Origin: a virus
Lineage: Duplodnaviria > Caudoviricetes
DNA: 42,641 nt
Strand: one strand, 5' to 3'
IMG/VR virus record: IMGVR_UViG_3300044448_002764
Location: 1-42,641 of that record
The position numbers were made by a program, and so were the translations under genes. A model generated the notes under the pieces. It searched no databases, was not told the DNA's origin, and worked only from the letters and a program-made list of their open reading frames with translations. Positions 1-15,100 of the stretch are shown one piece after another (positions within the stretch are counted from its first letter, which is position 1; each line of letters opens with the position of its first letter).

Positions 1-147
1 TTATATAGTAAAGGCATAAAACCTAACAGACACTGGAAAATATCAAATGTTAAGAAATATTTTGGTATGAATGGTAATGCTGAACTATTATTGCTTAAAT
101 TGGAAAAGCTAAATAGAGTTTTTCATATTAAGGATAAAAGCGAATGA
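1..147 (+). CDS. Hypothetical phage protein, 5'-truncated (…LYSKGIKPNRHWKISNVKKYFGMNG…KSE*)
   Basis: Frame +1 is open from the window edge to TGA at 145-147, which overlaps the next ATG (ATGA coupling). Not in the supplied ORF track. Confidence 0.7.
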   Translation, partial: LYSKGIKPNRHWKISNVKKYFGMNGNAELLLLKLEKLNRVFHIKDKSE

Positions 148-323
148 GTAAAAAAAGAACAGAAGTTGAAGAAATGGTTATATCGGCAATATGCAACTTT
201 TGGCTATGGTATGGAACAGACGAAGAAAGAGATATTGTCGAGGAATATATGGACAACGAACATACTGATTATAATGATTGGTTTGAAATAAAAAAGGACA
301 AGAAAAATGATGAGAACAGATAA
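144..323 (+). CDS. Small acidic hypothetical protein (59 aa)
   Basis: Hand-translated MSKKRTEVEEMVISAICNFWLWYG…ENR*. AAGGA SD upstream and coupled to neighbouring ORFs. Confidence 0.7.
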   Translation: MSKKRTEVEEMVISAICNFWLWYGTDEERDIVEEYMDNEHTDYNDWFEIKKDKKNDENR

Positions 324-480
324 ACACGATGAGTGGGCAAGTAATTGTTGCGATGCTCATCCACAACACGAATACTGGTGGGACGGAGATTATAGTATGC
401 CACCAATAGGCTATTGCAGTAAATGTAAAACTGGGACAGTATTTCAAGTGATAGACGAAAGTAAACTAGACGAGGAATAA
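307..480 (+). CDS. Small Zn-ribbon protein (57 aa; SNCC…CSKC)
   Basis: Hand-translated MMRTDKHDEWASNCCDAHP…GYCSKCKTGTVF…; AAGGA SD upstream. Confidence 0.7.
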   Translation: MMRTDKHDEWASNCCDAHPQHEYWWDGDYSMPPIGYCSKCKTGTVFQVIDESKLDEE

Positions 481-481
481 A

Positions 482-625
482 ATGGAACCATATAATAAAG
501 AAAAATGTCCTAGATGTAAAAGAAAATACAGAGGATATCCTGCTTTGTCTAGAAAAGACAATAAAACAGAGATATGTAGCGATTGTGGAGTAGTAGAAGC
601 GTTATCTGATTTTATCTTACGCTAA
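482..625 (+). CDS. Small Zn-finger protein (47 aa; CPRC…PALSRKDNKTEICSDCG…EA)
   Basis: Hand-translated; two CxxC pairs; GAGGA SD; pattern typical of phage microproteins. Confidence 0.75.
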   Translation: MEPYNKEKCPRCKRKYRGYPALSRKDNKTEICSDCGVVEALSDFILR

Positions 626-641
626 AAAGATAATATTGTAC

Positions 642-671
642 TTGCATTATATATAATATTATTAGTATATT
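642..671 (+). promoter_or_regulatory. Sigma70-like early promoter TTGCAT-N18-TATATT
   Basis: -35/-10-like hexamers in an AT-rich intergenic gap upstream of ORF 709. Confidence 0.55.
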
Positions 672-708
672 AATATAGTTAAAAAATAGAGGTATCAAGA
701 GATTTTGA

Positions 709-906
709 ATGAACGACAAGAAAATAAAATTTACAAACTATTTAAATGAACATGAAATTTTAGATTTGTTGTTTGAAAAAATCCTCGACACAAATACATC
801 AGATTTTTGCAGTGTAGTTTCAAATGTTTTAGGCATGAAAGTAATCTACATAGAAGACAAAGATTTATACATGATAGAGACAAAATTTGAGATAGATATA
901 AATTAG
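709..906 (+). CDS. Hypothetical protein (65 aa)
   Basis: ORF track; follows the promoter; GAGGT upstream. Confidence 0.7.
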   Translation: MNDKKIKFTNYLNEHEILDLLFEKILDTNTSDFCSVVSNVLGMKVIYIEDKDLYMIETKFEIDIN

Positions 907-1430
907 TTTTTTGAAAATATATGGTAAGCAATAAAGCATAGAATGTAAATAGTTTTGGGTTGCTCCTTAATGAATTTGCTGACTATCAGATTATTTTCTC
1001 TTTGGCCAGAGATATATGAATTATTGCTTAAATGGCAAACCTGTATATATATTGTTCTACAAGGTATTACAGGTGCTAACATTATGGAACATGTCCTAGT
1101 AGTCTTATCAAATGATATTGCTATAACCTTAAATGGTTTGATGTTAGGCAGGTGCTGAATTTAAACAAAACAAAAAATAGGGTTGTAATACTCTTGATTG
1201 TTTTGTAGACGGTACAAAACTTATGTTAACTCTGTGCTTGGGAGCATAAGATATTACATTAGTCAAGTTGCTAATTATCAATGCTTTAGTGGTCGACACG
1301 CTAAAATGAGATAATCGCTGACAGGTGTTGTAATATGTATCGTGAGAGCGAAAGCTCCAGACAAGTGTAGGTATCTAGGGGGAACACATAAACCCTCGTC
1401 AGCCATATAAAATTTTTATTGAGGGGATAA
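907..1430 (+). ncRNA. Candidate multi-domain structured RNA block 1 (~500 nt, unknown family)
   Basis: No credible ORF. Stems seen: TAAGCAATAA 925-934/TTATTGCTTA 1021-1030; ACCTGTA 1039-1045/TACAGGT 1068-1074; CTAACATTA 1076-1084/TGATGTTAG 1139-1147; GTTTTGTA/TACAAAAC 1200-1220; GCTGAC 1317-1322/GTCAGC 1398-1403 containing GAGC-GAAA-GCTC; possible closing pair TATATGG 918-924/CCATATA 1403-1409. Confidence 0.65.
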
Positions 1431-1772
1431 ATGGAACATGATATGCTATTAAAAGATTTAATTGATAAGAAAAAAGAAGCAGATTTGCAGTCTGAATATA
1501 TATTACAGAAGATTACAGACAGATTTTTATCAAACTATGGAAGAAGAACTTTAAACTCTTTGAACAATGGAGAGGAAACCTTTAGAAAAAACATAGGACA
1601 AAGATTTATAAACGCCTACAAAAGACAAGGCATAACAACTATTCAAGAATGGTATGATAAGCATTATATATCAGGCTTAGGTTGGAAGATAAGAAACATT
1701 AGAGGTGTTGGTCTAAGAGATACAATAAAAACCTTGAATGAATTAGCAGGATATGAAATATTTAAGCATTAG
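1431..1772 (+). CDS. Protein with RNA polymerase alpha-subunit CTD-like (HhH) C-terminal domain
   Basis: C-terminal IGQRFINAYKRQGITTIQEW…IRNIRGVGLRDTIKTLNEL follows the alpha-CTD pattern R-x2-N-x2-K-R-x-G-I-x-T…I-x2-G. GAGGGG SD. Confidence 0.55.
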   Translation: MEHDMLLKDLIDKKKEADLQSEYILQKITDRFLSNYGRRTLNSLNNGEETFRKNIGQRFINAYKRQGITTIQEWYDKHYISGLGWKIRNIRGVGLRDTIKTLNELAGYEIFKH

Positions 1773-2570
1773 TTTTTTGATAATTTAAAAATTGGCTATC
1801 ATTAGCATGGTAGCAAATAGTTTATAGTTGGACAAAGCACTCACGCAGCTAACGAATTATGGTCCTAGGACATAAGGGATGCTTCTCAGGAAACTGCCAC
1901 AAGTACTATAAACAGGAACTGAATGTGATAAACTTGTTATCAGTCCTTAACGAAAGTAACATTCCGTAAGGCATACAAGAATTACAAACGGAATTAAAGG
2001 CAAGATATTGCCGTAACCTAAGGTGTTCCTTCTATTCCACTTAGGTTCTAGATTTTTGAAATAATTATTAGCAAAGCTCTCTGTGTAGGCCGGTCGAAAG
2101 CCCCGTTGGAATCAAGAAGACGAACTCCAACATAAATAAGTTCCTTGTAAATCGCATCTTTGCTAATATAAACAAGTATGTAACTAGTTTAGTAGCAGAC
2201 CTGAGAAGTTACACTAAGTTTATTCCAGGAACTCATATAATAGCCATAGCACATAGTGAAGGTATTGAGCACTACTATTAAACGAAAAAAAAGCTTGTAT
2301 AAATATAGGGTTGTGTTCTAGCGACACATTAAATGATGTCTTACATTTCCAAACGGATGCTATATCAGCCCTTTAGTTTAAGGCGATGTGGATTAGACGC
2401 ATTTTCTGATGCCTTAATAAAGACGAGGGTTATTAATGTAATATGCTATAGACCCCTCTAAATTGAGAGCCAATAACTGGTCCTGTAAGCTCTTGAAGTA
2501 ACTCAGTTGCAACTGATTGAACCAGGCAAAGGAATATGTGAGGCTCTCATAAATTTTTATAGGAGATAAT
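1773..2570 (+). ncRNA. Candidate multi-domain structured RNA block 2 (~790 nt, ~12 consecutive stem-closed units)
   Basis: Stems seen: GTTTATAGT 1820-1828/ACTATAAAC 1905-1913; ATTCCGT 1961-1967/ACGGAAT 1988-1994; GGCAA-GATA-TTGCC 1999-2012; 2015-2047; TATTAGCAAAG 2066-2076/CTTTGCTAATA 2158-2168; TGTAACT/AGTTACA 2179-2213; AGGGTTG 2307-2313/CAGCCCT 2366-2372; TTAAGGC/GCCTTAA 2378-2417; TGAGAGCC 2464-2471/GGCTCTCA 2542-2549. A-rich linkers lie between units. Confidence 0.7.
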
Positions 2571-2759
2571 ATGAGCAAGACAGTAAATATTTGTAAATTA
2601 AAGATAGACAATAAAGGTAGAATAACACTGCCTAATACATTTTTAAAGGCTAATGGTGTGAAAGTTGGCAGTTATGTTGTGGTTCAACCAATGTATAACT
2701 CTAATTCAATTAAAATTAAATTTGAAGACAAGGAAAAGAAAAATGATAGCAATAGGTAA
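2571..2759 (+). CDS. AbrB/MazE/SpoVT-family DNA-binding protein
   Basis: KIDNKGRITLP swapped-hairpin signature; AGGAG SD. Confidence 0.85.
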   Translation: MSKTVNICKLKIDNKGRITLPNTFLKANGVKVGSYVVVQPMYNSNSIKIKFEDKEKKNDSNR

Positions 2760-2901
2760 TGGAGAGAAATGTCCTTTCTGCGATAAAGTAATGAAGGACT
2801 TTAAAATAGATGGACAAAATAGTATGCAACATTTTATTGACAAGCATCCTAAAGAATTTGAAGAAGCAGTATTTAAAAACATAGGTGGTGGAATATTATA
2901 G
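2743..2901 (+). CDS. C2H2-like Zn-finger microprotein (52 aa)
   Basis: CPFC…HFIDKH. Start moved to ATG 2743 (AAGGA SD) from the track's 2665. Confidence 0.7.
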   Translation: MIAIGNGEKCPFCDKVMKDFKIDGQNSMQHFIDKHPKEFEEAVFKNIGGGIL

Positions 2902-2961
2902 ACATAGAAGAAAGAGAATACCTGCTTATCAAAGAAGTAAATATAAATAGAGGGCAAAAAA

Positions 2962-3552
2962 ATGTGGTCAAAAATGACAGGAAAGTTAGAAGACATCCCA
3001 GCATTGAACACAAATACTCTGACGAATAAATTTTGCAAAGCAATGAGAAAAAGAGAGGACAGTATATGTAGTAAATGTTACTCTTTTTATATGCTTGAAA
3101 GATATCGTAAGAATTGTGCAGATGCTTGGGAGAAGAATTCAAAATATCTATCTAGCAATCTTTTAGATATAAAATCAATACCACCATGTAGCAGTGTAAA
3201 ACTTGGAGTTGCAAGATTTAATGCTCATGGAGAATTAATAAACGAAACACACTTTAAAAACATAATATCAATATGTAATGCTCAACCTCATTACACCTTC
3301 ACTTTATGGACAAAAAAAGTATTCCTTGTTCAAAGGGTGCTAAGGCAAATCGAGAAACCAAAGAATTTAATATTAATATATAGCAATGAATTTATAGATA
3401 CAACAGCGAAACTACCTTCCAAATTTGATAAGGTTTTTAATGTTGCATCTAAGCCTAAAGATTATGTAAATTGCATTGGAAAGTGTAAAGACTGCTTAAA
3501 ATGCTATGACTTACACGATTCAACTGAACAAATTTATGAGGTAATCAAATGA
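2962..3552 (+). CDS. Gp88-like Cys-rich protein (radical-SAM-like fold)
   Basis: C-x10-CSKCY, ARFNAHGEL, FTLWTK, NLILIYS and a C-terminal CxxxCxxCxxC cluster. Confidence 0.6.
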   Translation: MWSKMTGKLEDIPALNTNTLTNKFCKAMRKREDSICSKCYSFYMLERYRKNCADAWEKNSKYLSSNLLDIKSIPPCSSVKLGVARFNAHGELINETHFKNIISICNAQPHYTFTLWTKKVFLVQRVLRQIEKPKNLILIYSNEFIDTTAKLPSKFDKVFNVASKPKDYVNCIGKCKDCLKCYDLHDSTEQIYEVIK

Positions 3553-3758
3553 GTATACCTAAGACTATAACCTCAATGGGAACTGGCACTCTTGAAAAGG
3601 AATTAAACGATATTGAAGACCGTTTAAAATATTTTGATGGAGAGCAAGAAAAACTATACAGAGATGCTTTAAGAAAAGAAGCTTTGAAAAGAGGTTACGA
3701 TGTTAAATATGTTACCAAGCGTGTTTCTTACATAAGACTTATTAGGAAGTATCAGTAA
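3549..3758 (+). CDS. Hypothetical protein (69 aa)
   Basis: ATGA overlap with the upstream gene; GAGGT SD. Confidence 0.7.
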   Translation: MSIPKTITSMGTGTLEKELNDIEDRLKYFDGEQEKLYRDALRKEALKRGYDVKYVTKRVSYIRLIRKYQ

Positions 3759-3783
3759 AGATTTAATTAATAAGGAGACAGCA

Positions 3784-4371
3784 ATGGGAATGGATGTATA
3801 TGGGTTAAACCCCAAGACAGATTCCCCTCGTCCAGACCCACAAGATTACACTAACAAGAATCTTGCTGGAGATGAGTGGGAAAAGATACAAAAGTTAACA
3901 AAAAAACAAAGAGACAAGTTCTACAATAAAAAATGGGATTGGGAACACAACAATAAAGGTGTTTATTTTAGAAACAATGTATGGTGGTGGAGACCATTAT
4001 GGGATTATTGTAAAGGAGTATGCCCAAACATAATAACTGAAGAAAAATGGGAAGAGGGACACCATAATAGTGGATGTTCTTTTACTGAAGAAGAAGCAAT
4101 TGAAATAGGAGATATGCTTAATGAACAATTATCTAAAGGTTTTACCATAGAGTATGAAGCATCCTATAAACAATGGCAACACGACCTTCCTCAAAATGTA
4201 TGTTCTAATTGCAATAATAATAATAGAGGCAACACAAAGAAAAAAGATTGTGCTGTATGTAACACAACTGGGTTTGTAAACGACTGGAACAAATCCTATC
4301 CTTTTAACACAGAAAATGTAAAAGAGTTTGCTGAGTTCTGTATAAATAGTGGAGGGTTTAAAATATGTTAG
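3784..4371 (+). CDS. Conserved phage protein (MGMDVY…YFRNNVWWWRPLW type) with inserted CxxC/CxxC Zn ribbon
   Basis: ORF track; AAGGAG SD; CSNC…CAVCNTTG. Confidence 0.75.
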   Translation: MGMDVYGLNPKTDSPRPDPQDYTNKNLAGDEWEKIQKLTKKQRDKFYNKKWDWEHNNKGVYFRNNVWWWRPLWDYCKGVCPNIITEEKWEEGHHNSGCSFTEEEAIEIGDMLNEQLSKGFTIEYEASYKQWQHDLPQNVCSNCNNNNRGNTKKKDCAVCNTTGFVNDWNKSYPFNTENVKEFAEFCINSGGFKIC

Positions 4372-4685
4372 ATGAAAAGTTAATTAATGATGAGTTAGGA
4401 GATATGAGCGAAGAAGAAAAAGAGTGGTTAGAGACTCCAACAGAAGATTACACAGACCCATTGGTTATTGCTAATGCTCGTATAGCAGACCTAGAAATGA
4501 CTGTCTCTGTATTAAGAGGGGTTGCTAATGAATTGCCATACGAAGACCTTTGGATGGAATTAATTTCAGCTGAAATGTATATAGCAGAACTTGAAGATGA
4601 ATTATTTAGAAATGGAATAAAAAGGCTAAGGAGGCCAACATATGAAGACAAACGAAATAAAAAAAGGAACAAAAATAAGAACTAA
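4365..4685 (+). CDS. Hypothetical acidic coiled-coil protein
   Basis: ORF track; GGAGG SD. Confidence 0.7.
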   Translation: MLDEKLINDELGDMSEEEKEWLETPTEDYTDPLVIANARIADLEMTVSVLRGVANELPYEDLWMELISAEMYIAELEDELFRNGIKRLRRPTYEDKRNKKRNKNKN

Positions 4686-4914
4686 TCAACTTGGACCACT
4701 AGTAGATGGAACAATGGAAGACAATAAAAAAGGAAACATAAGAACCATAAAAACAAATGGCAGTCAAATAGGATTGTTTGATGAAATAGGCTCTGTGTAT
4801 TCTTTTAATATTATCTATGCTATGCAAAAAGGCAGATGGATTAGAGTTGAACATACTCAAAAGCAAAAACACTTAAGAAAACAAATAGATGGAAGTGCAG
4901 GTTTGTTTGCTTGA
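4642..4914 (+). CDS. Hypothetical protein (90 aa, small beta-barrel-like)
   Basis: ORF track; AAGGAGG SD. Confidence 0.75.
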   Translation: MKTNEIKKGTKIRTNQLGPLVDGTMEDNKKGNIRTIKTNGSQIGLFDEIGSVYSFNIIYAMQKGRWIRVEHTQKQKHLRKQIDGSAGLFA

Positions 4915-4920
4915 GAGTGA

Positions 4921-5037
4921 TTGGGTTTTTTATATATGGATGTTGCTGTTTTTGATAGCCGCCATAATGAAGAAAATATATACTTAACCCAAATATTAAA
5001 TGAGGTCTGTGTTATCACTATGGTAACACAGATTCTC
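4921..5037 (+). terminator. Two-hairpin intergenic element (terminator, processing site or small RNA)
   Basis: TTGGGTT 4921-4927/AACCCAA 4986-4992 with inner TATATAT/ATATATA; TCTGTGTTA 5006-5014/TAACACAGA 5024-5032. No U-tract on +. Confidence 0.5.
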
Positions 5038-5071
5038 AATAAATTATCATGATATTTATAAAAAAAATACT

Positions 5072-5099
5072 TTGATAATTCATTTTTTATTATTAAATT
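5072..5099 (+). promoter_or_regulatory. Sigma70-like promoter TTGATA-N16-TAAATT for the recombination/replication operon
   Basis: Hexamers in an AT-rich gap with an upstream A-tract. Confidence 0.45.
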
Positions 5100-5151
5100 T
5101 ATATAGTAGTTATTTAGAGGTTTTTAAAATTATACAAATGAGGAACGATAG

Positions 5152-5889
5152 ATGGTAAAGCAACCTATTGATGTTGAGCAATTGTGGAATTCTCACATTG
5201 AGAATAAGAATGAGCTCAATAGAAAAGAAAGATATGAGGGTAATGAACACTGGTTTCATGGGTCAGCCGCTGGCAAATGTGTTCGTAAAATATATTACGA
5301 ATCAGTGTTAAAAATTAAGCCTACAAATAAAAATTCAAACAAAGGTAATAGAATTCTTAGAGTTGGAACTGTCTTGCATGATGAATTTCAAGATGCCGTA
5401 TTAAAAGGCTTTAATAATATATATAATAATATATATAATATATATATAGAGAAAGAGCATTTAATACAAAATTTGAATGTGCGAGGATTTTCAGACCTAA
5501 TTATAGAGAAGGATGGTGTCTTCTTATATGACTTTAAAACCATAGGAGGTTTTCCGTATAAGATTCGCTTTGAATTCATGCCAAAGTATACCCAAAATGA
5601 TTTAAATGAAATGCAGTTAGCGACTTATGGGTTATCTGTTAAGGAAGAATTTGGTCGGCTCGATGGTATGTATCTTACATTTTTAAACAAAGATACTATG
5701 GATATGAGAACGATTGAAGTAAATAAAAGTTATCTCGATAAAGCAAAAAAGTATTGGGAGAATGTAAATAAAATAGTTGAGAAAGGATTGCCACCTCTGG
5801 ATTATGTGAATTCTCCAGCATATAAGTGGGAATGCAAATGGAAGAATGGTTGTTGTCCTTTTTATGAAAGGTGTGTTAAGGATGGCTAG
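5152..5889 (+). CDS. Cas4-like PD-(D/E)XK exonuclease
   Basis: N-terminal GKCVRK, GTVLH, RGFSD, YDFKT, QLATY and C-terminal WECKW…CCPFYERC (Fe-S cysteines). Confidence 0.85.
   Translation: MVKQPIDVEQLWNSHIENKNELNRKERYEGNEHWFHGSAAGKCVRKIYYESVLKIKPTNKNSNKGNRILRVGTVLHDEFQDAVLKGFNNIYNNIYNIYIEKEHLIQNLNVRGFSDLIIEKDGVFLYDFKTIGGFPYKIRFEFMPKYTQNDLNEMQLATYGLSVKEEFGRLDGMYLTFLNKDTMDMRTIEVNKSYLDKAKKYWENVNKIVEKGLPPLDYVNSPAYKWECKWKNGCCPFYERCVKDG
5413..5447. repeat. Pure A/T tandem repeat (AATAATATATAT units) inside the Cas4-like gene
   Basis: Encodes NNIYNNIYNIYI. Confidence 0.8.
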
Positions 5890-6115
5890 TAAAAGAATAG
5901 ATAGTGATGAAAAAATAATATATGATAGTTCTTCAAGCAGACAAGCACAAGACCAGAAAAGATATAAATCGCTAGGATTATGCATTAAATGTCAAAAGCC
6001 TATATGGAGTGGGGTTAGTAAGAGTTTCTGCGAAAAACACACCATATGGATGCGAGAATACCAAAGGAAGAAGAACGGTAACATTAGAAGAAATAAAGTT
6101 AAGAGTTATTTATAA
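5882..6115 (+). CDS. Basic Zn-finger protein (GLCIKCQKP…FCEKH)
   Basis: Start moved to ATG 5882, overlapping the upstream gene end; CxxC…CxxH. Confidence 0.7.
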   Translation: MASKRIDSDEKIIYDSSSSRQAQDQKRYKSLGLCIKCQKPIWSGVSKSFCEKHTIWMREYQRKKNGNIRRNKVKSYL

Positions 6116-6136
6116 AACAAACAGGAGACGAATACC

Positions 6137-6367
6137 ATGATAAAAAGATGGTGGAGAGAAATAGGTCTTGTTATTTTATTGGTAATAACTTTGAGTTATG
6201 CAATAGATAACAATAACAAACAATGTGAAGTAAAAGAGCAAGTGTTGGAAAGCAATTCAATATCATTTGATGAGGCTTTCAGAAAAGCACATAAAGAGAA
6301 TGGTGCTGGAACAACATTTACTTGGAATGGAAATGAATACAAAGTAGTATTCAGAGAGGACGATTAA
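6137..6367 (+). CDS. Small membrane-anchored or exported protein with SFDEAF…FTWNGNEY module
   Basis: Basic N-terminus plus hydrophobic helix IGLVILLVITLSYA; AGGAG SD. Confidence 0.75.
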   Translation: MIKRWWREIGLVILLVITLSYAIDNNNKQCEVKEQVLESNSISFDEAFRKAHKENGAGTTFTWNGNEYKVVFREDD

Positions 6368-6369
6368 AC

Positions 6370-7017
6370 ATGAGTAAACCAGAGATAACTATCGATGCAT
6401 TAAATATGCTTAGTAAGTTTGAAAAGGATTTATTTTCTAAACATAGAAACATAAGTGCTGAAAAGACACCCAAACACTATGTTAAGAGAAGACCTGATGG
6501 TTTAGACTATGTAGAAGAGTCTTACATGAGAGAAAAACTTAACGAGCATTATCCCTTATGGTCTTGGGTTATTAGTAAAACCGAGTTCCTTGGGGCAGAA
6601 TGGTGCATAGTTAGTGGAGAACTGCAAGTCGCTATTGATGGTGCAGTGAGAAAGTTTGGCTCAGTTGGGGCTGCTAGGGTTCAATTCAAAAGAGGGCAAC
6701 CACACACAGCTGAAAATGTTATAGATATAGATAAGAATCTTGCAAGTGCAAATACAAATGCATTTAAAAGAGCAATAAGCAGATTATGTAATATCGCTGA
6801 TGATGTTTATAGGAAGCATGTTGAAGATGTATCTCTAACAGACAAACAAGAGGAAACTATATCGCAATATCTAAATGGCGTTGATAGTAAGGTTGTTAAT
6901 CAAGTTAATAAAGGTGTCAAAGAGGGGAGTATAACATCTCAAAACTTTGATGCTACTATTAGAAGGTTGATTACAATAAGAGAAGATAATAATCTAAGTA
7001 AAATAAAGGAAAGCTAA
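6370..7017 (+). CDS. Sak/Rad52-like single-strand annealing protein
   Basis: RPDGLDYVE…LNE…WSW…ASANTNAFKRA…IADDVY; lies between the exonuclease and SSB. Confidence 0.8.
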   Translation: MSKPEITIDALNMLSKFEKDLFSKHRNISAEKTPKHYVKRRPDGLDYVEESYMREKLNEHYPLWSWVISKTEFLGAEWCIVSGELQVAIDGAVRKFGSVGAARVQFKRGQPHTAENVIDIDKNLASANTNAFKRAISRLCNIADDVYRKHVEDVSLTDKQEETISQYLNGVDSKVVNQVNKGVKEGSITSQNFDATIRRLITIREDNNLSKIKES

Positions 7018-7018
7018 T

Positions 7019-7336
7019 ATGAAGAAAGCGGTCGTAAAAGAAAGTAAGACAGAAAATGTGAAAGACAAGGTTACTAAAACTACTAAAATAAAATATTCAG
7101 TAGCAGAAAAACTTTGGGAACAACAAGGTCTTTCAAAAGAGAGTTTAAATGAAGCGATTCTAAAAGGATTGGTCTCAAGACCTTCCCACATGAGGACACT
7201 CTTAACACCAGAGCAAATGAAGCTAGTTGATTTGTTTAACAATGCATTAAAGAAAAATGGATTTGAAACAATGTCTAATTTCAAAGGAGAGTTAGTTAAA
7301 CCAGTGATAAAGTTCACTAAAATAAAAGGAAAATAA
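7019..7336 (+). CDS. Hypothetical basic protein
   Basis: ORF track; AAGGA SD. Confidence 0.7.
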   Translation: MKKAVVKESKTENVKDKVTKTTKIKYSVAEKLWEQQGLSKESLNEAILKGLVSRPSHMRTLLTPEQMKLVDLFNNALKKNGFETMSNFKGELVKPVIKFTKIKGK

Positions 7337-7339
7337 GTT

Positions 7340-7930
7340 ATGAGTAAAAATTACTTTGATGCTTCTTTAAGTGGGGATAGGAAACTTGTTGAAGGTATAT
7401 ATCCTACCCATGTTATAGAGGTCAACATAAAAGAAGACATAGCAATTCGTGGAAAGAATCTAGCAACTATATACAATTTGAAAGTTAAGGTTGCTGATGA
7501 AGCCAAAACACATACCTTTACATCTGAAGATGGTCAAGGATTTTCTGGACAAGTGTATGTCGGAAAAGAAATATATGCACAAGGCGTATTCTTCTTTACA
7601 CATCCAGAGAAACCAGAGCATTCTCATCTATCTGCCAATCCAGGAGGAAACGAAAAGTATTTTGAGTTTTGTCAAATGCTTGGAGTGGAATGTCCAGAGG
7701 AGGAGATTGAGGTTGCATCTGGGAATGAGGTTGTTAAGAAAAAAGTTCCAGTTTTAAGAGCGTTAACAGAAGATGATATACTAGGGAAACCTTTATTATC
7801 TTGTGTAGGCTCTGTAAGCTGGGAAGACAAAGGTACTGGAGAAAGAAAGAGTACTATGAAAGTCAAAGATTATCAGCCTTGGAAGGCAGGAAATACATTA
7901 GATGTTGAAGTCGATGATTTGCCTTTCTAG
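7340..7930 (+). CDS. Phage single-stranded DNA-binding protein (OB-fold, DUF669-like)
   Basis: LVEGIYP start motif and acidic C-terminal tail DDLPF; sits in the recombination module. Confidence 0.75.
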   Translation: MSKNYFDASLSGDRKLVEGIYPTHVIEVNIKEDIAIRGKNLATIYNLKVKVADEAKTHTFTSEDGQGFSGQVYVGKEIYAQGVFFFTHPEKPEHSHLSANPGGNEKYFEFCQMLGVECPEEEIEVASGNEVVKKKVPVLRALTEDDILGKPLLSCVGSVSWEDKGTGERKSTMKVKDYQPWKAGNTLDVEVDDLPF

Positions 7931-7950
7931 ATAAACAGCAAAAGGTTTTT

Positions 7951-8052
7951 CCACGATGCGTGGTGTTTTCCTAAGTGAATAATAAACATAATAGGCAAGC
8001 AAGCGAAGTGTGCCAGGCTATAAAATAAACACTGGAGGTGGTAGGATTCATT
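7951..8052 (+). other. GC-elevated, self-complementary intergenic element
   Basis: CCACG-ATG-CGTGG, GTGTTT/AAACAC, CCTA/TAGG and GGCA/TGCC pairings. Confidence 0.35.
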
Positions 8053-8071
8053 TAAAATTTAGGGGATAGAT

Positions 8072-8209
8072 ATGATTACAATGAGAATGGTAGGCGAAAA
8101 AGAATTTTTTGATAAAGCAAAAGAACTTAATAGATTTCTAACAAACGAAGAGAGAAGACTTGTAGTTGAAGTTATGAAGGCAATGATAAAATCAAGAGAG
8201 GAAGAATAG
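8072..8209 (+). CDS. Hypothetical protein (45 aa)
   Basis: Hand-translated MITMRMVGEKEFFDKAKELNRFL…; AGGGG SD. Confidence 0.6.
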   Translation: MITMRMVGEKEFFDKAKELNRFLTNEERRLVVEVMKAMIKSREEE

Positions 8210-8337
8210 TGAAAAATAGAAGGCTTAAAATAGATTTAGCATTATTCTTTCATTCATTTGGAGTTAGGGCTAAGACAGTATGTAGGTTATTTAATGTAGC
8301 ACCAGCAACATTTTATAGGCATAGAAAGAGTGGATAG
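8209..8337 (+). CDS. Small helix-turn-helix protein (42 aa, Hin/resolvase-type HTH)
   Basis: GTG start; GVRAKTVCRLFNVAPATFYRH; GAGGA SD; coupled at both ends. Confidence 0.7.
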   Translation: MKNRRLKIDLALFFHSFGVRAKTVCRLFNVAPATFYRHRKSG

Positions 8338-8749
8338 GAAATGGATATGTCCTTCATGTGGGTGGGTAGACCCTTTAACAACCAATAGTGTAAAGAAGAA
8401 GACATATAAAATAATAGAAGAATTAAAGAGAGATAGACCAGAGGTAACCATGTCTCTACTCAAAAAGATAATGACATTAATGAGAAAGCATGTCTATCTA
8501 GGCAAAGATTACTATCATGAAGAATATAAATTTGTATGTGGTGTAAAGCAATTTCCAGACAGAGTTATTAGTCATTCAGTTAGATGGTTTATATCAGAAG
8601 AAAAACATTTGAGAGGAACAGCGTATAGTTATCTTCTTGGAATAATGAGAAGAGAGATGAGTAGATTAGAGGCTATGAAAGAGTATGAGCGTAAATATGA
8701 AGAAAAACAGCCTCCTAAATTAAGGAAAGTAAATGAGAAAAATAGTTGA
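8330..8749 (+). CDS. Zn-ribbon protein, possible replication initiator or helicase loader (DnaD-like YxxGI motif)
   Basis: CPSCG at the N-terminus; YSYLLGIMRR near the C-terminus; upstream of dnaB. Function is inferred. Confidence 0.5.
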   Translation: MDRKWICPSCGWVDPLTTNSVKKKTYKIIEELKRDRPEVTMSLLKKIMTLMRKHVYLGKDYYHEEYKFVCGVKQFPDRVISHSVRWFISEEKHLRGTAYSYLLGIMRREMSRLEAMKEYERKYEEKQPPKLRKVNEKNS

Positions 8750-9620
8750 TAAAGGGAGATTAGAATGTCCTGTACTATTAAAATGGGTAGGTGGGAAATA
8801 TTATATGTCAAAAGATTTGATACCAATGTTTCCAGAACACGCAACATATATTGAACCATTTTTTGGTGGAGGAAGTGTCTTCTTTAGAAAAAACAAAGCA
8901 TTGTATAATGTTGTTAATGATATCAATAGAGATTTAATCAATCTTTATCTATGTGTGGCAAACAAAGATACACTAGAAAAGTTTAGAGATTATAGTAAAT
9001 GGTTATTGTCATCAAGAACATTATATGATTTAGCAGACAAAGTATATTTAGATAAAGAAATGGAATTAGAAAAAGTTGGTAAAGATTATGAGAGAGCTGC
9101 TTTGTATATGTTTTATATGAGGAGTGCATTCAATGGAACTCATGGAGCAGGATTTGCAGTGAGAAAACAATATGCACAACCTTGGAATCATAGAATATTA
9201 CAAGTGCTTGATGCTTCACATTCTAAATTAGATGGAGCAGTTATAGAGTGTATGGACTTTTTTAAATTTGTAGATAAGTATGAGGATGTACCTAATTCAT
9301 TTTGGTATTTAGACCCTCCATATGTAGTAGCAGATACTAAAAAGTATTATGAGTTTAACTTTAACAAGCAACTACATGATGATATGTTAGATTGTATGGT
9401 TAGGTTAGATAAAGCTGGTGCAAAATTCATGATAAGCTACGATGCAATTGACTGGCTTATTGAAATTTATGAAGAAAAGGGGTTTATTTGCGACTTTATT
9501 GAATGTGTATACTATTCCACAGGTAAGAAAAATCAAAAGGTAAAAGAGGTAAAAGAACTAATAATAACTAATTATAAAATAAAACGCTCGGAAGAGCAGA
9601 TAGGATTGTTCAATGGATAA
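8733..9620 (+). CDS. dam: DNA adenine methyltransferase (Dam/D12 family)
   Basis: KWVGGK, YIEPFFGGGSVF, NDIN, YLDPPY, FMISY, ELIITNY. Confidence 0.93.
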   Translation: MRKIVDKGRLECPVLLKWVGGKYYMSKDLIPMFPEHATYIEPFFGGGSVFFRKNKALYNVVNDINRDLINLYLCVANKDTLEKFRDYSKWLLSSRTLYDLADKVYLDKEMELEKVGKDYERAALYMFYMRSAFNGTHGAGFAVRKQYAQPWNHRILQVLDASHSKLDGAVIECMDFFKFVDKYEDVPNSFWYLDPPYVVADTKKYYEFNFNKQLHDDMLDCMVRLDKAGAKFMISYDAIDWLIEIYEEKGFICDFIECVYYSTGKKNQKVKEVKELIITNYKIKRSEEQIGLFNG

Positions 9621-10926
9621 GGTAGGAGTTCCTCCACATTCGGTGGAAACTGAAGAGGCTGTTCTTGGATGTTTGATAGCAGATTCAAAAGTATTTGATA
9701 ATGTTTCTGCCTATGTAAAGATTCCAGATGTTTTCTATGTAACAAAGCATCAGATGTTATTTAAAAAGATAGTAGGTATGGTTAAGAAAAATGAACTTGT
9801 AGATGCAACAACAATATCAGCATCACTAACAAAGAAGGAGAAAGAGAACAATATAAGTGCTTATTGGATTACAAGTTTGACATCTAATGCACCGTCCTCT
9901 ACAAATTCTGAATATTACTCAAGAATTTTATATGAGAAATATTTACTAAGAAGTTTAATAGATAAGACGAGAGGGATAACTGAGTCTGCGTTTGAAAGCA
10001 ATGCAGACATATATCAGTTTCTAGAGTCAACCTATTCTCAGATAGGAGAAGCAATAAGGGTCAGACCTGGAGAAGATTTCGATATTGATAATCTATTAGA
10101 AGACACGATAATAAATTTAAGTGATAATGATAACACAATATGCACAGGGTTTAGAGATATAGATGAGTTAACTGGTGGCATGACTAGAGGGGAGATAACC
10201 ATAATTGGAGGAAGGCCATCTCATGGTAAAACAACCCTTGCAATGAATATTGTTTCAAACATTATTAATGGCAGGAAACATAAAGTTTGTTTTATTAATA
10301 GAGAGATGACAAATATAGAGATGATGAATAAATTAATGGTTCTTGAATCTGGAAATGTGTCATACAAAATGCTTAGAAAAAGAGCATTGACTAAGAAAGA
10401 TTTTGAAGAGATTGAAAGAACAAAAGAAACTATAAAAGAAAAATATAATTCTGATAAGTTTGTTATGTTTGATAATATAAGAGATTTTGCAACATCTTCA
10501 TCTCAAATTAAAAAGTTTTGCCCAGATGTTATAGTTGATGACTATGTGCAATTAATACAACCAGTGACAGAAACAAAGGATAGAAGACTTCAAATAGAAG
10601 AAATAGTTAATAGTTATAAATGGATAGCAAAAGAATTAAATTGTGTTGTCATACTTGTATCTCAACTTAATCGTTCTATAGAAACAAGAGTTAATCCCAA
10701 ACCTAGAATGTCAGACCTTGCAGAGAGTGGTAGCTTAGAGCAAGCGGCTGAAAATATATTGTTTGTTTATTATGATTATAAAGTACATTATGAAGAATCT
10801 GAGAAAGGAAAAGATGTAATAGAGGTCATAGCAAGTAAAGTAAGGTATGGGGAAAGCGGCTCTGTAGATATGAAATACAATGGAGATAAATGTTCCTTTG
10901 AATCAGAAGAGTTAATACCATATTAA
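9613..10926 (+). CDS. dnaB: Replicative DNA helicase
   Basis: PPHSVETEEAVLG, TGFRDID, GGRPSHGKT, DDYVQL, SQLNR, PRMSDLAESGSLEQAA, KVRYG. Confidence 0.96.
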   Translation: MDKVGVPPHSVETEEAVLGCLIADSKVFDNVSAYVKIPDVFYVTKHQMLFKKIVGMVKKNELVDATTISASLTKKEKENNISAYWITSLTSNAPSSTNSEYYSRILYEKYLLRSLIDKTRGITESAFESNADIYQFLESTYSQIGEAIRVRPGEDFDIDNLLEDTIINLSDNDNTICTGFRDIDELTGGMTRGEITIIGGRPSHGKTTLAMNIVSNIINGRKHKVCFINREMTNIEMMNKLMVLESGNVSYKMLRKRALTKKDFEEIERTKETIKEKYNSDKFVMFDNIRDFATSSSQIKKFCPDVIVDDYVQLIQPVTETKDRRLQIEEIVNSYKWIAKELNCVVILVSQLNRSIETRVNPKPRMSDLAESGSLEQAAENILFVYYDYKVHYEESEKGKDVIEVIASKVRYGESGSVDMKYNGDKCSFESEELIPY

Positions 10927-10936
10927 AGGAGAAGAG

Positions 10937-11083
10937 ATGAAGCATATTAAAGATATAGAGGAAGCATATAAATTGTTAAAAGAGTGTAGAAATATTTTCA
11001 AAAGATTGAATGGAGATAGTGTAGTTATGTTAAAAGAAATGGAAAGAGTTAACAACAGAATAGATAGATTAATAGAAGATTAA
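10937..11083 (+). CDS. Hypothetical helical protein (48 aa)
   Basis: Hand-translated MKHIKDIEEAYKLLKECR…; AAGGAG SD. Confidence 0.65.
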   Translation: MKHIKDIEEAYKLLKECRNIFKRLNGDSVVMLKEMERVNNRIDRLIED

Positions 11084-11094
11084 TAATATTTATG

Positions 11095-11123
11095 TTGTTA
11101 ATTAATTTTATTTAGTTTATATT
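11095..11123 (+). promoter_or_regulatory. Sigma70-like promoter TTGTTA-N17-TATATT
   Basis: 17-nt spacer; same -10 as the promoter at 642. Confidence 0.5.
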
Positions 11124-11147
11124 ATTTTATTAGCTTTTTAAATATTA

Positions 11148-11214
11148 TGGGGAGTTTCATGGAATGCCCTCACTACCATACCATTCTACCTCTATTTAAC
11201 GATGGAGCTCCCCA
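11148..11214 (+). ncRNA. Candidate small RNA or leader: 13-bp stem with 41-nt C-rich loop
   Basis: TGGGGAGTTTCAT 11148-11160 pairs with ATGGAGCTCCCCA 11202-11214 using two G-U pairs, which favours the + strand as RNA. Confidence 0.55.
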
Positions 11215-11229
11215 GTAAATTGGAGAAAT

Positions 11230-11412
11230 ATGAGACCAATATTTCACGAAATAGGACATTTTTATATAACAGGAGATGGTAAAAAGTTTCTTGATTTAGA
11301 TGAAGCGAAGTCCTATCAAAGTAAACTAGAAAGAAAGGAAGTAAATGAAAGTAAAGAACTCAAAGAGGATACACGCCCTAGCCCTTACTCCCCAAAAAAA
11401 CAGAGTAATTGA
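11230..11412 (+). CDS. Hypothetical protein (60 aa)
   Basis: GGAG SD; YITGDGKKFL…EA pattern. Confidence 0.65.
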   Translation: MRPIFHEIGHFYITGDGKKFLDLDEAKSYQSKLERKEVNESKELKEDTRPSPYSPKKQSN

Positions 11413-11533
11413 AGCACTAAGAGAGGGTGCAAAAAGCAGAAAAATGTTTGATGACCCAAAGGATAGACCTTCAAATGATAGATATAAAAAACTAAAAGCA
11501 TTTAGAGATGGGTGGTTTAGAAGTGGCGAATAA
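11345..11533 (+). CDS. Hypothetical basic protein (62 aa)
   Basis: ORF track; AAGGA SD; overlaps the previous ORF by 68 nt. Confidence 0.55.
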   Translation: MKVKNSKRIHALALTPQKNRVIEALREGAKSRKMFDDPKDRPSNDRYKKLKAFRDGWFRSGE

Positions 11534-11738
11534 AAAGAAGACATCTAAAGAATTAGAATCCATGATATATAAACTAGCTACGAATACAGAGTATTTAACT
11601 GGAGTTGTTATGAGTTCAGCGGCTATGTTTAATGACTACCTTATATATAAAGGAGATGTTGAGAAGTTTAAATCTTGGGCTCAAGACCAAATAGATAAGA
11701 AGAAAAAAATAAAACAATTAAAACAAGATGCAAAATAA
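11523..11738 (+). CDS. Hypothetical protein (YLIYKGD motif)
   Basis: Likely GTG start at 11523 (track start 11508). Confidence 0.65.
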   Translation: MANKKKTSKELESMIYKLATNTEYLTGVVMSSAAMFNDYLIYKGDVEKFKSWAQDQIDKKKKIKQLKQDAK

Positions 11739-12186
11739 AGTATATGTAGGAATAGACCCAGGAATAAGTGGAGGTGTTTGTGTTATAGATAGAGATGGGA
11801 ATGCGAACGCAATAGCATGTCCCAAAACACCAATGTTAATGGGAGAAGAATTATTTGGTATGCTACCTAATGATGGAACTGAAGTTGTTGGAGTTATAGA
11901 GCATGTCCATGCTTTCCCAACAGACGGTCGTTCATCTGCATTTAAATTTGGAAGAAACTTTGGACAATGGGAAGGGATACTTTCTGAAATGAATGTCCCA
12001 TATACTCTTGTCACTCCTTATACATGGCAAAAACATTTTGAATGCCCTAAATTCGATACTAAAAAACTAAGAAAAAGATGGCTTAAAACTCATGCAGAAG
12101 AATTATATCCACAGATAAAGGTCACTTTTAAAGTTTCTGATTCTATATTGATTGCTAGATATTGTATGGATAAAGATTCTATCTAG
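11728..12186 (+). CDS. ruvC: RuvC-like Holliday junction resolvase
   Basis: VGIDPGISGG, VIEHV, SAFKFGRNFG, VTPYTWQK, SDSILIA. Confidence 0.88.
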   Translation: MQNKVYVGIDPGISGGVCVIDRDGNANAIACPKTPMLMGEELFGMLPNDGTEVVGVIEHVHAFPTDGRSSAFKFGRNFGQWEGILSEMNVPYTLVTPYTWQKHFECPKFDTKKLRKRWLKTHAEELYPQIKVTFKVSDSILIARYCMDKDSI

Positions 12187-15100
12187 GTTGAATTCTTTGA
12201 AGTTTGTCTAACTCTATAAACTCTTTTAAATCTGAAATAAATAAATCGTTTTTATTATACTTTCTTATTGCCCCATCTAAAAGTTGTAATCTCTTCATAT
12301 AATACTCTTCTGTTTCGTTTATTTGCAAGAAAACATCTGGGTTGGTTTTCTTAACATGAAGCATAAACTCATTATACTTTGATATAATTTTACCACCTCT
12401 ATCATTTAATGCAAGGTCAACAGGTCTAAATCTTTTAACAGAACCAATGATTTCATTATGTGCATCTATATATGCTTGTGCAAATTGATTTCCATTGCTT
12501 CCAGTATATTGATTTGATTCTTTATACTGATGTGTTAATTGCATAACCGAACTCCAAAACGCATTAGCCATTTCCTGTTCATTTCCAGTATAGAATGCAT
12601 CCTGTAAATCTTTTTGAAATTTATGTCTTTCTGTATAAACCTCTCTATAATATTTATTATCTTCCCAAGAGGCTGGGTCTCTATTCTTAGAATAAAAATC
12701 AACATACTTTCTTATCTGTTTATGATTGACTAAGTATCTATGCTCTGGTTTAGTTGATATCTTGTTTTGATAAACTTTCTCTGCATGATTAAAAAACACT
12801 ATTGTATCTTTTAGATAGTCTTCAAAAGCCCTATCCTTTCTTTCATTTCCTGTAGTAAGTTTTATAATAAGAGATGTGAAGTCCTGTATTTGTCTGAAAA
12901 TCGCAACCTCATCTAATAACCCCCCAGCTTCTCCATTGAAATCTTCAACAACATTTGTAAATGGACCAAGTATTTCCATTGTAAATCCATTCTCAATTAT
13001 CTCTGCATACTGTCTATCTTTATCTGCAATCTCAGTTCCACTTATTCTTCCTAATATGTTTTTATATAATCCATTCATTACCTCTCCACCAACAAGAGAT
13101 GACGATATATATCTAAGCATTGGAAAAGGATTTCCTCCAGCTAAAGGTTTATAAACATTGTTATGTACATTTACTCCTGCTCTATAAGCCATCCTATAAA
13201 ACAAGGTCATACTCCTCCCAGTTTTTCCAGAAGACCATAATGGTAGAAATGCTGGAGATGTAGCACCTTGAGTATTTATATGTGAATAGTGTGCAATCTT
13301 TTTATTAATGTTAATAATATTTTGTGCTTGACCAGAACTAACAACAGATGGATTTCTTGAATCTAATCCGTATCTTTCAATCAATCTTATATCTTTTTCG
13401 CCTAATTGAAAAGTATTCCTAAATAAATCATATGCATAATCTTTTGTCATAATTTTTCTTAAAGCCGCTGATGCTGTTTTATTTTGTAATACATAGGCTG
13501 CATTTTGAGAAACATAATGACCAGCAGCTACAGACCGTATTCTGTTTGCGTTTTCAGCTATCGTCATTAGTCCAGGATTATACTTAGTTATCTTTCCACT
13601 TAATCCAGCGTCTTTCCATAAAGTTCCACCAACCTCAAATGCATTAACTTTGTTAGCAAGATTCCACATCTTAGGGTCAATTAATGCTGTATAACTTCTC
13701 ATCAACCCTCTAAAACCATAAGCAGTAAAGTTATGTACATCTGCTAATAACCAGTTTTTCATTCCAGTAAATGGAGATGTTAAACCAGTCCATCCAACAT
13801 ATGCAGTTACAGATTTTAATCCTCTATACCAAGGGTCATTAAGCAAATCTCTATCTCCAAGCAATTGTTTTTTGATAGTTCTTTCTGAGTATTGTTGAAG
13901 TTTTTGACTAACCTTTCCCATATCATTTAATATGTTTTTTGCATACCCCTCTCCTTGAGAAGGCATTTTTATACCATATTTATTTTTTAACATTCTGTCT
14001 ACATTTGTATAATCTCTAAAATGTTTTATTGTAGATACATAATGTGACATTCTTTGAGTGTAAGTTTCAACATTTTGAAATGATGTATCAAATATTTTTA
14101 TTTCTTTCATCTTTTTATTTCCAAGCATGTCTGTAACTTGCATCTCCATAACATTGGGAAGTTTTGCTTTTCTAGTCATATCAAAATTAACATTAAATAA
14201 AACATTGTCATATGAGTTTCCATTTACAATATCATTAATAACTGAACCTGCACTAGATTTTAATTCTTGTTGAGATAGTCTTTGATTTTTTGGTAATTTT
14301 AAATTTTCTGCTTCAAGTTGTTTTAATATATTATATTCAAGTTTATCTTTGAATCCAAATTTATTTGATATAGCCCATTTTCTAGCCTCTGGAGTTAATA
14401 CTCTTTGAACATAATCTTCTACATATCTGTCTTTTCTTAATTTTTTTCTAACCTTATCTCTTAACCCTTTTGTTTTTAAGGGCTTTACAACGGCCTCTAC
14501 CCATTGGTCAAACAATGAATTCATCATATCTTGATACTTTTCTTTTGCTTTATAAGCTTTTGAATCTTTATTGGGAGCGAGATAATCTGCATCTCCTTTT
14601 CTTCCACGACCATTAGCATCTCTATACCATTTCTTTTCTTTTGTAGACAACTTATCATATGAAAACATTTCTTTATTATGAAGTTTTGTAACCATATCTA
14701 ATTCTGTTGTATTCAATCCAAGTCCATTTAACTTGCTTGTCATCTGTCTTCTGTAATAGTTTCCAGTTGCTTTCTGTGTTACACTATCAAAGAAGTGGGC
14801 ATACAATTTTTCTGAAACAATTTTTCCAGGTCCACCTCCAAATTTTTCAATAACTTTTGCAGAAGGAAGTGCCATCTTTGTAAAGAAACCTAATTTGTCA
14901 AACTCTTTTACTCCAAGTTTTTTCACAACTTCTTTTCTAATAATAGAATCAGAAGCCTTGTCCCTTAATGATAACTCAGCATTCTTCTCAACCCATTTTT
15001 TATAATTATATAAATCTTTAGGAGATGCCTTAGATAAATCTCCATCAACAATACCAAGAGTTCTTCTTAAATGTTGAACAACTTGTTCTTTTAATCCAAG

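Follow-up and report, generated by a model that had tools for sequence, protein, structure and literature searches.

The window analysed here is the whole 42,641 nt of record IMGVR_UViG_3300044448_002764, a linear virus that is 88 % complete and whose source phage DNA was met in seawater metagenomes. Its virion and replication genes include those for a P22-like portal, an SU10-type capsid protein and DnaB, and its terminase shares no greater than 27 % identity with phage records among the 12 matches listed. The region of interest (642-2759) is the start of the rightward early arm, and its features are collected in Table 1. The three ORFs frame two gene-free gaps, 907-1430 and 1773-2570, summing to 1322 nt, in agreement with an earlier note on this DNA that had described about 1.3 kb as non-coding. 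ARAGORN found no gene.

Table 1. Features of the region 642-2759, numbered from the first base of the window
Feature	Position	Strand	Basis or remarks
Early promoter, probable sigma-70-type	642..671	+	TTGCAT, 18 nt, TATATT; predicted function
Small ORF (ORF709), 65 aa	709..906	+	No family
Large ornate RNA, ~495 nt (block 1)	916..1411	+	Homologues, HMM, covariation, RNA contigs
ORF1431, 113 aa	1431..1772	+	C-half weakly alpha-CTD/helix-hairpin-helix-like, unproven
Module A, ~260 nt, variable arm (block 2)	1794..2057	+	Covariation, palindrome, RNA contigs
Deletable domain, 11-bp closing helix (block 2)	2064..2171	+	Exact loss in a relative; own fold
Module B, compact double-pseudoknot RNA, variable arm (block 2)	2171..2299	+	Covariation, RNA contigs
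Small hairpins (block 2)	2305..2460	+	Last one, 2425-2459, recurs in relatives
Module C, irregular hairpin, near-invariant base, swappable top (block 2)	2462..2552	+	62 distinct copies
ORF2571, AbrB/MazE-type DNA-binding protein, 62 aa	2571..2759	+	PF04014

The promoter proposed in that note is not in the list produced by a consensus promoter scan, but both hexamers (TTGCAT at 642-647 and TATATT at 666-671) are kept in the near-identical phage L205 despite a changed spacer, which is 17 nt there. The protein encoded by ORF709 shares 62 % amino acid identity with its L205 counterpart, the only relative found. Further along the early arm lie a repeat-like A/T stretch (5417-5458), two more intergenic gaps (7931-8329 and 10927-11229), and genes for a Cas4-like PD-(D/E)XK nuclease and a D12-class adenine methyltransferase (5152-5889, 8733-9620).

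The first gap is occupied by one large RNA. A motif built from three viral loci matched 35 metagenome contigs, 26 of which proved to be homologues by alignment while nine were dropped as chance, and 29 homologues, in marine contigs, are now available, with lengths in relatives of 408-492 nt. An HMM made from 18 homologues, with the window left out, detects 1020-1406 at E=6e-20. Covariation was assessed on 16 of the 30 copies, leaving out near-duplicates, truncated copies and three others; 72 of 99 pairs are changed on both sides and 95.7 % of cells pair, in a structure derived from the same alignment used to test it, which favours it. None of 500 shuffles was as good, and slid partners pair in 37.5-47 %. 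The fold is closed by a helix at approximately 918-926/1402-1410, the sequence of which varies between copies and which was chosen as the best complement, and it contains two four-way junctions (1076-1147 and 1249-1338) plus a manA-like terminal hairpin. Three crossing helices form pseudoknots, at 1056-1063/1202-1209, 1150-1154/1371-1375 and approximately 1198-1203/1383-1388, and covary in 5/8, 3/5 and 3/4 pairs, the 3/4 resting on few events. The RNA is identical to that of L205 at 483 of 496 positions, versus just 152 of 194 for ORF709.

The gene that follows the block-1 RNA belongs to 17 families in 27 loci. A tRNA directly adjoins the RNA in L196, and tRNA-like genes lie near it in L191, L201 and L212. 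Mini tmRNA-like genes of approximately 80 nt, with the tRNA-like domain only, were also seen in L196 (60-139, 65 bits) and L191 (356-436, 64 bits), where they neighbour tRNAs and the block-1 RNA. BLAST against phage and plasmid records revealed no RNA homologue, and successive scans of bacterial genomes gave only chance matches, namely none, then seven that were all unlike by eye, then 13, none of which was matched by the block-1 family HMM. Exact patterns taken from the window had no match in viral contigs. Loci fetched through searches with neighbour genes contained no RNA homologues, and 32-nt matches in two of them (L010 and L012) were dismissed as chance.

The closest known kin of the block-1 RNA is manA, and the likeness is topological only. 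The manA model (RF01745) had no match in the window, with 96.6 bits for the positive control S-CREM1, and two block-1 homologues align weakly over the whole manA model, at 19.1 and 18.3 bits against a cut-off of 55.2 bits. In the reverse search, block-1 models scored true manA at 2.4 bits and a junction covariance model (CM) had no match. By eye, the 3' domain of block 1 nevertheless has the manA helix order, consisting of the closing helix, a short hairpin with a G/U-rich loop, a long hairpin, a hairpin with an AC loop and a terminal GGUA..AAUCC hairpin. The helix order of the manA four-way junction, a junction with L5 and L7 hairpins, can be recognized twice by eye in block 1, and the helices there covary. 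Like manA, this is a marine phage RNA found beside tRNAs. However, its length is more than double, it has a second junction, and three pseudoknots connect distant parts of it. The idea of block 1 as a doubled manA found no support from the models, the junction CM detecting neither the second junction nor true manA. RNA-only cages built by manA RNAs via L5-L7' kissing loops are described in a preprint (bioRxiv 10.64898/2026.07.01.735769).

ROOL and GOLLD are also large, multi-junction RNAs with three pseudoknots and few invariant bases, phage-borne and found near tRNAs (PMC5737381, PMC12286853), and a phage context near tRNAs is described for manA, ROOL and GOLLD alike (PMC12286853). The block-1 RNA is likewise large and has few invariant bases, and it shares the junctions, the three pseudoknots and the phage and tRNA context, though this does not make it a member of either family; it is shorter than either and is embedded among exchangeable modules. 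The ROOL model (RF03087) found no match in the window, its working control scoring 130 bits, nor did the conserved 3' domain of the GOLLD model (RF02032), which scored 171 bits on the control, L124. The block-1 HMM and CM in turn miss the L. salivarius ROOL, the one ROOL tried, and the L124 GOLLD. An Enterococcus ROOL locus was found in none of 151 Bacilli genomes, where few candidates were scored. The true GOLLD RNA of L124, an array relative, lies at 5291-5682, approximately 1.9 kb upstream of a long module array.

Block 2 is a chain of independent modules and not one RNA. Of the earlier claim of two structured RNA blocks, real conserved RNAs stand in both while the second block dissolves into parts. 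The modules were first seen as sub-motifs in DNA runs and were then scanned for in marine viral contigs; their structures come from the very alignments on which they are tested. A minimum free energy (MFE) fold of block 2 as a single RNA was discarded, because the long-range pairing of A with B is excluded by relatives in which the two are kilobases apart.

Module A, loci for which were first fetched through other motifs, has 33 of 40 predicted pairs compensatory (8 sequences). Its loop, CCUAGG at 1864-1869, is palindromic in all ten distinct copies (nine CCUAGG, one CCAUGG) while the stem changes; the same kind of signal has been taken to indicate intermolecular bridges in OLE and GOLLD (PMC12286853). 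The domain that follows folds on its own and is skipped exactly (2065-2171) by a relative in run X13; no other homologue of it was found. Module B consists of a closing helix, P1, two pseudoknots and a variable arm, and 16 of 33 pairs are compensatory with 97.4 % paired and 0/500 shuffles as good (14 sequences), the changes in the core being mostly one split between two subtypes. Many of its unpaired bases are invariant. The small hairpins at 2305-2422 have no homologue that we could find, and the last one, 2425-2459, is found on its own in L140 and L210, and within the module-C arm in L139. Module C is known from 62 distinct copies, obtained from 92 viral matches and two loci in metagenomes, with 10 of 19 pairs compensatory, 95.5 % paired and 0/500 shuffles as good; its invariance is partly built in, as 18 invariant bases were fixed by the search pattern. 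Its flanks are 80 % A/T versus a background of 68 %, and in the window it ends 18 nt upstream of the AbrB start codon. L106 (approximately 10175) and L164 (778-863) each contain a second, divergent module C in addition to the first, and in one of these the inner helix is reversed.

In relatives the order of the modules differs and they may lie kilobases apart; examples are A-[5 genes]-B-[7 genes]-C, C-A-E and A-F-C-E-G-B, and neighbouring modules are separated by anything from 0 to 13 genes. Many relatives have lone modules among their early genes, gene-free arrays of at least six modules also occur, and a given module is as a rule present once per genome. Of the 82 loci, which are fragments, 19 have one or more early proteins in common with the window. 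Exchange of arms takes place between scaffolds A, B and C: 11 of 72 distinct variable arms recur either free with their own closing stem or inside the arm of another scaffold, and none did so in five shuffles. Whole domains are also gained or lost exactly, as in the X13 relative and in L205, which carries an extra cassette of approximately 75 nt between the ORF1431 homologue and module A (oriented 2950-3050). Additional uncatalogued stem-closed cassettes that are absent from the window, such as E, F and G, recur among relatives; examples lie at L124 7820-8740, L121 7000-8200, L097 8070-8600, L122 13600-14400 and L165 8700-9200.

No described RNA family had been recognized in the earlier note, and the Rfam scan it had called for agrees. 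Across the whole window no family reached gathering level, and at E up to 10 in 600-2800 there was nothing except one chance match within an ORF; array modules in relatives' loci (11, then 4) likewise had no Rfam match. Likenesses to group I/II introns, RNase P, HEARO, twister, hammerhead, hairpin and SRP RNAs were set aside for want of Rfam support. The block structure is real, and it is covariation that demonstrates it, not folding energy. Whole-block z scores are -2.61 (block 1) and -2.06 (block 2), 120-nt windows inside the blocks reach only -2.1 to -2.3 on the + strand, and two coding 120-nt windows, at -3.3 and -3.9, lie beyond them, so that the energy check of the structured blocks is modest and some coding windows fold better. 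Boundary motifs common to both blocks, put forward earlier as a sign of deliberate organization, are present (904-916 / 1770-1782; E=0.001 for a stretch of 20 nt, E=0.056 for a 3' word) but are only a stop codon with a U-run and an A/U-run with a Shine-Dalgarno sequence, outside the conserved RNAs. Conserved small ORFs were rejected as an explanation of block 1, as alignments of this RNA contain frame-breaking indels and, across 19 copies, the longest stretch free of stops is 39-81 codons whatever the frame. Block 1 of the window includes a TTG-start frame of 67 aa at 955-1158.

Four metatranscriptome runs from four studies, chosen with this stretch, were compared with window 1-6000. All six near-identical RNA contigs fall inside the blocks, two in block 1 (952-1170 and 1252-1405) and four in block 2 (1808-2045, 1844-1988, 2078-2250 and 2098-2248), for which uniform placement within the searched 600-2800 gives p ~0.012; a seventh piece matches in part, over 38 nt at 5717. 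A DNA contig runs unbroken over 129-2198. The RNA contigs have a depth of 2-4.6 and carry neither strand nor ends, DNA carry-over is possible, and the absence of contigs over the ORFs or outside 600-2800 was not counted as non-expression. The contigs are a weak hint that RNA of the blocks accumulates.

The earlier note had read the locus as an RNA-plus-protein transcription-control cassette, with ORF1431 as an RNA polymerase alpha-CTD mimic followed by AbrB. The AbrB assignment is confirmed, ORF2571 matching PF04014 at E=1.9e-7 and 31.4 bits, above the cut-off of 24.7. That of ORF1431 is not. It matches PF03118 on its C-half at E=0.15 and 8.3 bits versus a cut-off of 23.8, and its atlas likeness to alpha-CTD of 0.84 is a lead only. 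An AF2 model (pLDDT 51) has four C-terminal helices and gave no fold match with Foldseek, hhalign against a true phage alpha-CTD gave 0.2 %, and only two relatives were found in 5.8 billion proteins. P0003 and P0004 are unrelated repeat proteins. Phage genes with a true C-terminal alpha-CTD domain do exist in G001 and G048 (64.6 and 55.8 bits), and the one in G001/L083 (3074-3778) lies directly behind module B.

The expected synteny of the RNAs with alpha-CTD and AbrB genes did not materialize. Among 82 other module-bearing loci, an ORF1431 homologue is present in one (the near-identical L205) and an AbrB homologue in two, in neither case directly behind module C, and AbrB is also found without an array. 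PF03118 was found in two of 50 module-bearing records (1/19 near-complete ones), and the genes downstream of module C belong to 28 families in 41 loci. On balance, the genes next to the RNAs are passengers, in an early region of variable content, and the first reading is corrected on this point. U-tailed terminators are absent from window 2570-12200 and, in 28 of 29 loci, from the 4 kb that follow module C, and a terminator scan gave no more matches than in shuffles. L088 has three U-tailed hairpins. Repeated near-identical G/C hairpins with U-tails lie between genes at 1830-3870 in this locus, terminator-like and unusual in the clade, and one is fused to the end of module C. With no fixed partner gene, a shuffled module order and scarce terminators, the cassette as proposed is not supported, while the alternative also offered in the note, a polycistronic array of separate RNAs, possibly decoys, fits the modular, shuffled RNAs.

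What has to be accommodated is a demonstrated combination of folds, modular shuffling and swapping of arms among A, B and C, with no constant partner gene. We tentatively favour, at somewhat short of an even chance, the reading that the conserved RNAs are cut from the early transcript, are likely stable and multimerizing, and serve as decoys for host RNA-binding or defence proteins. A single early transcript would start from the promoter at 642-671, and the RNAs would be released by host nucleases at A/U-rich linkers, as the A/T-rich flanks of module C suggest; RNase E-type nucleases prefer A/U single strands. The released RNAs would likely persist as stable RNAs, module A may dimerize through its palindromic loop, and the block-1 RNA could, by analogy with manA, ROOL and GOLLD, assemble in a cage-like manner, all then acting in trans as decoys. 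This reading draws on the covariation, the shuffled orders, the exact gain and loss of domains, the recurrence of arms, the upkeep of the palindrome, the RNA contigs in the blocks and the tRNA/GOLLD context. Known phage decoys include the pseudo-ToxI repeats of phage TE and RNA anti-CRISPRs, which resemble the present RNAs in being arrayed non-coding RNAs of phages that would sequester host proteins. However, they are repeats or imitations of a single known host RNA, whereas here there are many unrelated folds with swapped arms.

Against decoys, and in keeping with a role in cis, the gap between module C and the next start codon has a median of 34 nt and is no more than 45 nt in 24 of 41 loci. 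The modules might then be portable mRNA leaders, processing sites or stabilizers for the next gene, of which the T7 RNase III sites are an example, with module C a translation-initiation cassette. Modules that sit singly between early genes would suit such a role, and manA was itself first put forward as cis-regulatory (PMC2864571). We consider this unlikely, since the median gaps for A and B are 620 and 255 nt, gene-free arrays of six or more modules occur, a triply knotted RNA of 450 nt that sits beside tRNAs does not look like a leader, and the RNA contigs cover the RNAs, not the ORFs.

Some modules could instead be self-cleaving ribozymes of a new kind, dividing the array into its units. 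Module B is the candidate, being a compact double pseudoknot with many invariant unpaired bases and a helix order (P1, two nested pseudoknots, variable arm) that resembles that of HDV ribozymes, where P1-P2-P3-P1.1-P4 form a nested double pseudoknot with P3/L3. The P3 hairpin is missing from module B, no Rfam ribozyme family matches, and contigs 2078-2250 and 2098-2248 cross its 5' end, though contigs cannot show ends; this explanation appears improbable. We rate as decidedly improbable that the modules are selfish or recombinogenic cassettes whose cores anchor the shuffling of early genes with little RNA function. The shuffling, the nesting and the common A/T-rich boundaries would agree with this, but pseudoknots and G-U-tolerant covariation are features of single-stranded RNA, one copy per genome as the rule means that the cores are not repeats, and RNA contigs are enriched on the modules.

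The put and nut RNAs of HK022 and lambda are antitermination RNAs and, like those described here, are structured RNAs early in a phage transcript, but the RNAs here have no fixed promoter-proximal position, conserved partner factor or downstream terminators, and no likeness to boxA/boxB or put was noticed in the blocks by inspection. Nascent-RNA antitermination or RNA polymerase takeover using the alpha-CTD-like protein and AbrB is therefore very improbable, the position right after the probable early promoter, the weak alpha-CTD signal in ORF1431, the alpha-CTD gene of G001 and the hairpins of L088 being outweighed by partner genes that rarely co-occur, shuffled module positions and the lack of terminators.

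The RNAs described here are a real, uncatalogued phage set, an ornate kind of phage RNA within a mix-and-match array. They add a new family of approximately 450 nt, triply pseudoknotted, and at least three compact uncatalogued motifs, for all of which alignments and predicted structures are at hand. In the literature covered, which excludes subscription papers and bioRxiv supplements, we found no paper that describes arrays of shuffled RNA modules in marine phages, and the module motifs had no match in six supplement files of PMC10690425, though they may be among the unnamed candidates of that study.

With regard to the function of the large phage RNAs GOLLD, ROOL and manA, the presence of a large RNA amid swapped, nested modules suggests selection for a varied binding repertoire. 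The decoy reading is testable, as the same hairpin occurs free and on different scaffolds. It is possible, if doubtful, that this marine phage clade runs a natural RNA display, in which self-multimerizing scaffolds (A, B, C and the cage-forming ornate RNA) bear interchangeable aptamer-like hairpins and recombination at the linkers reshuffles the decoys. If this were true, recombination at A/T linkers would keep the decoys of these phages evolvable in the face of the defence or regulatory proteins of the host.
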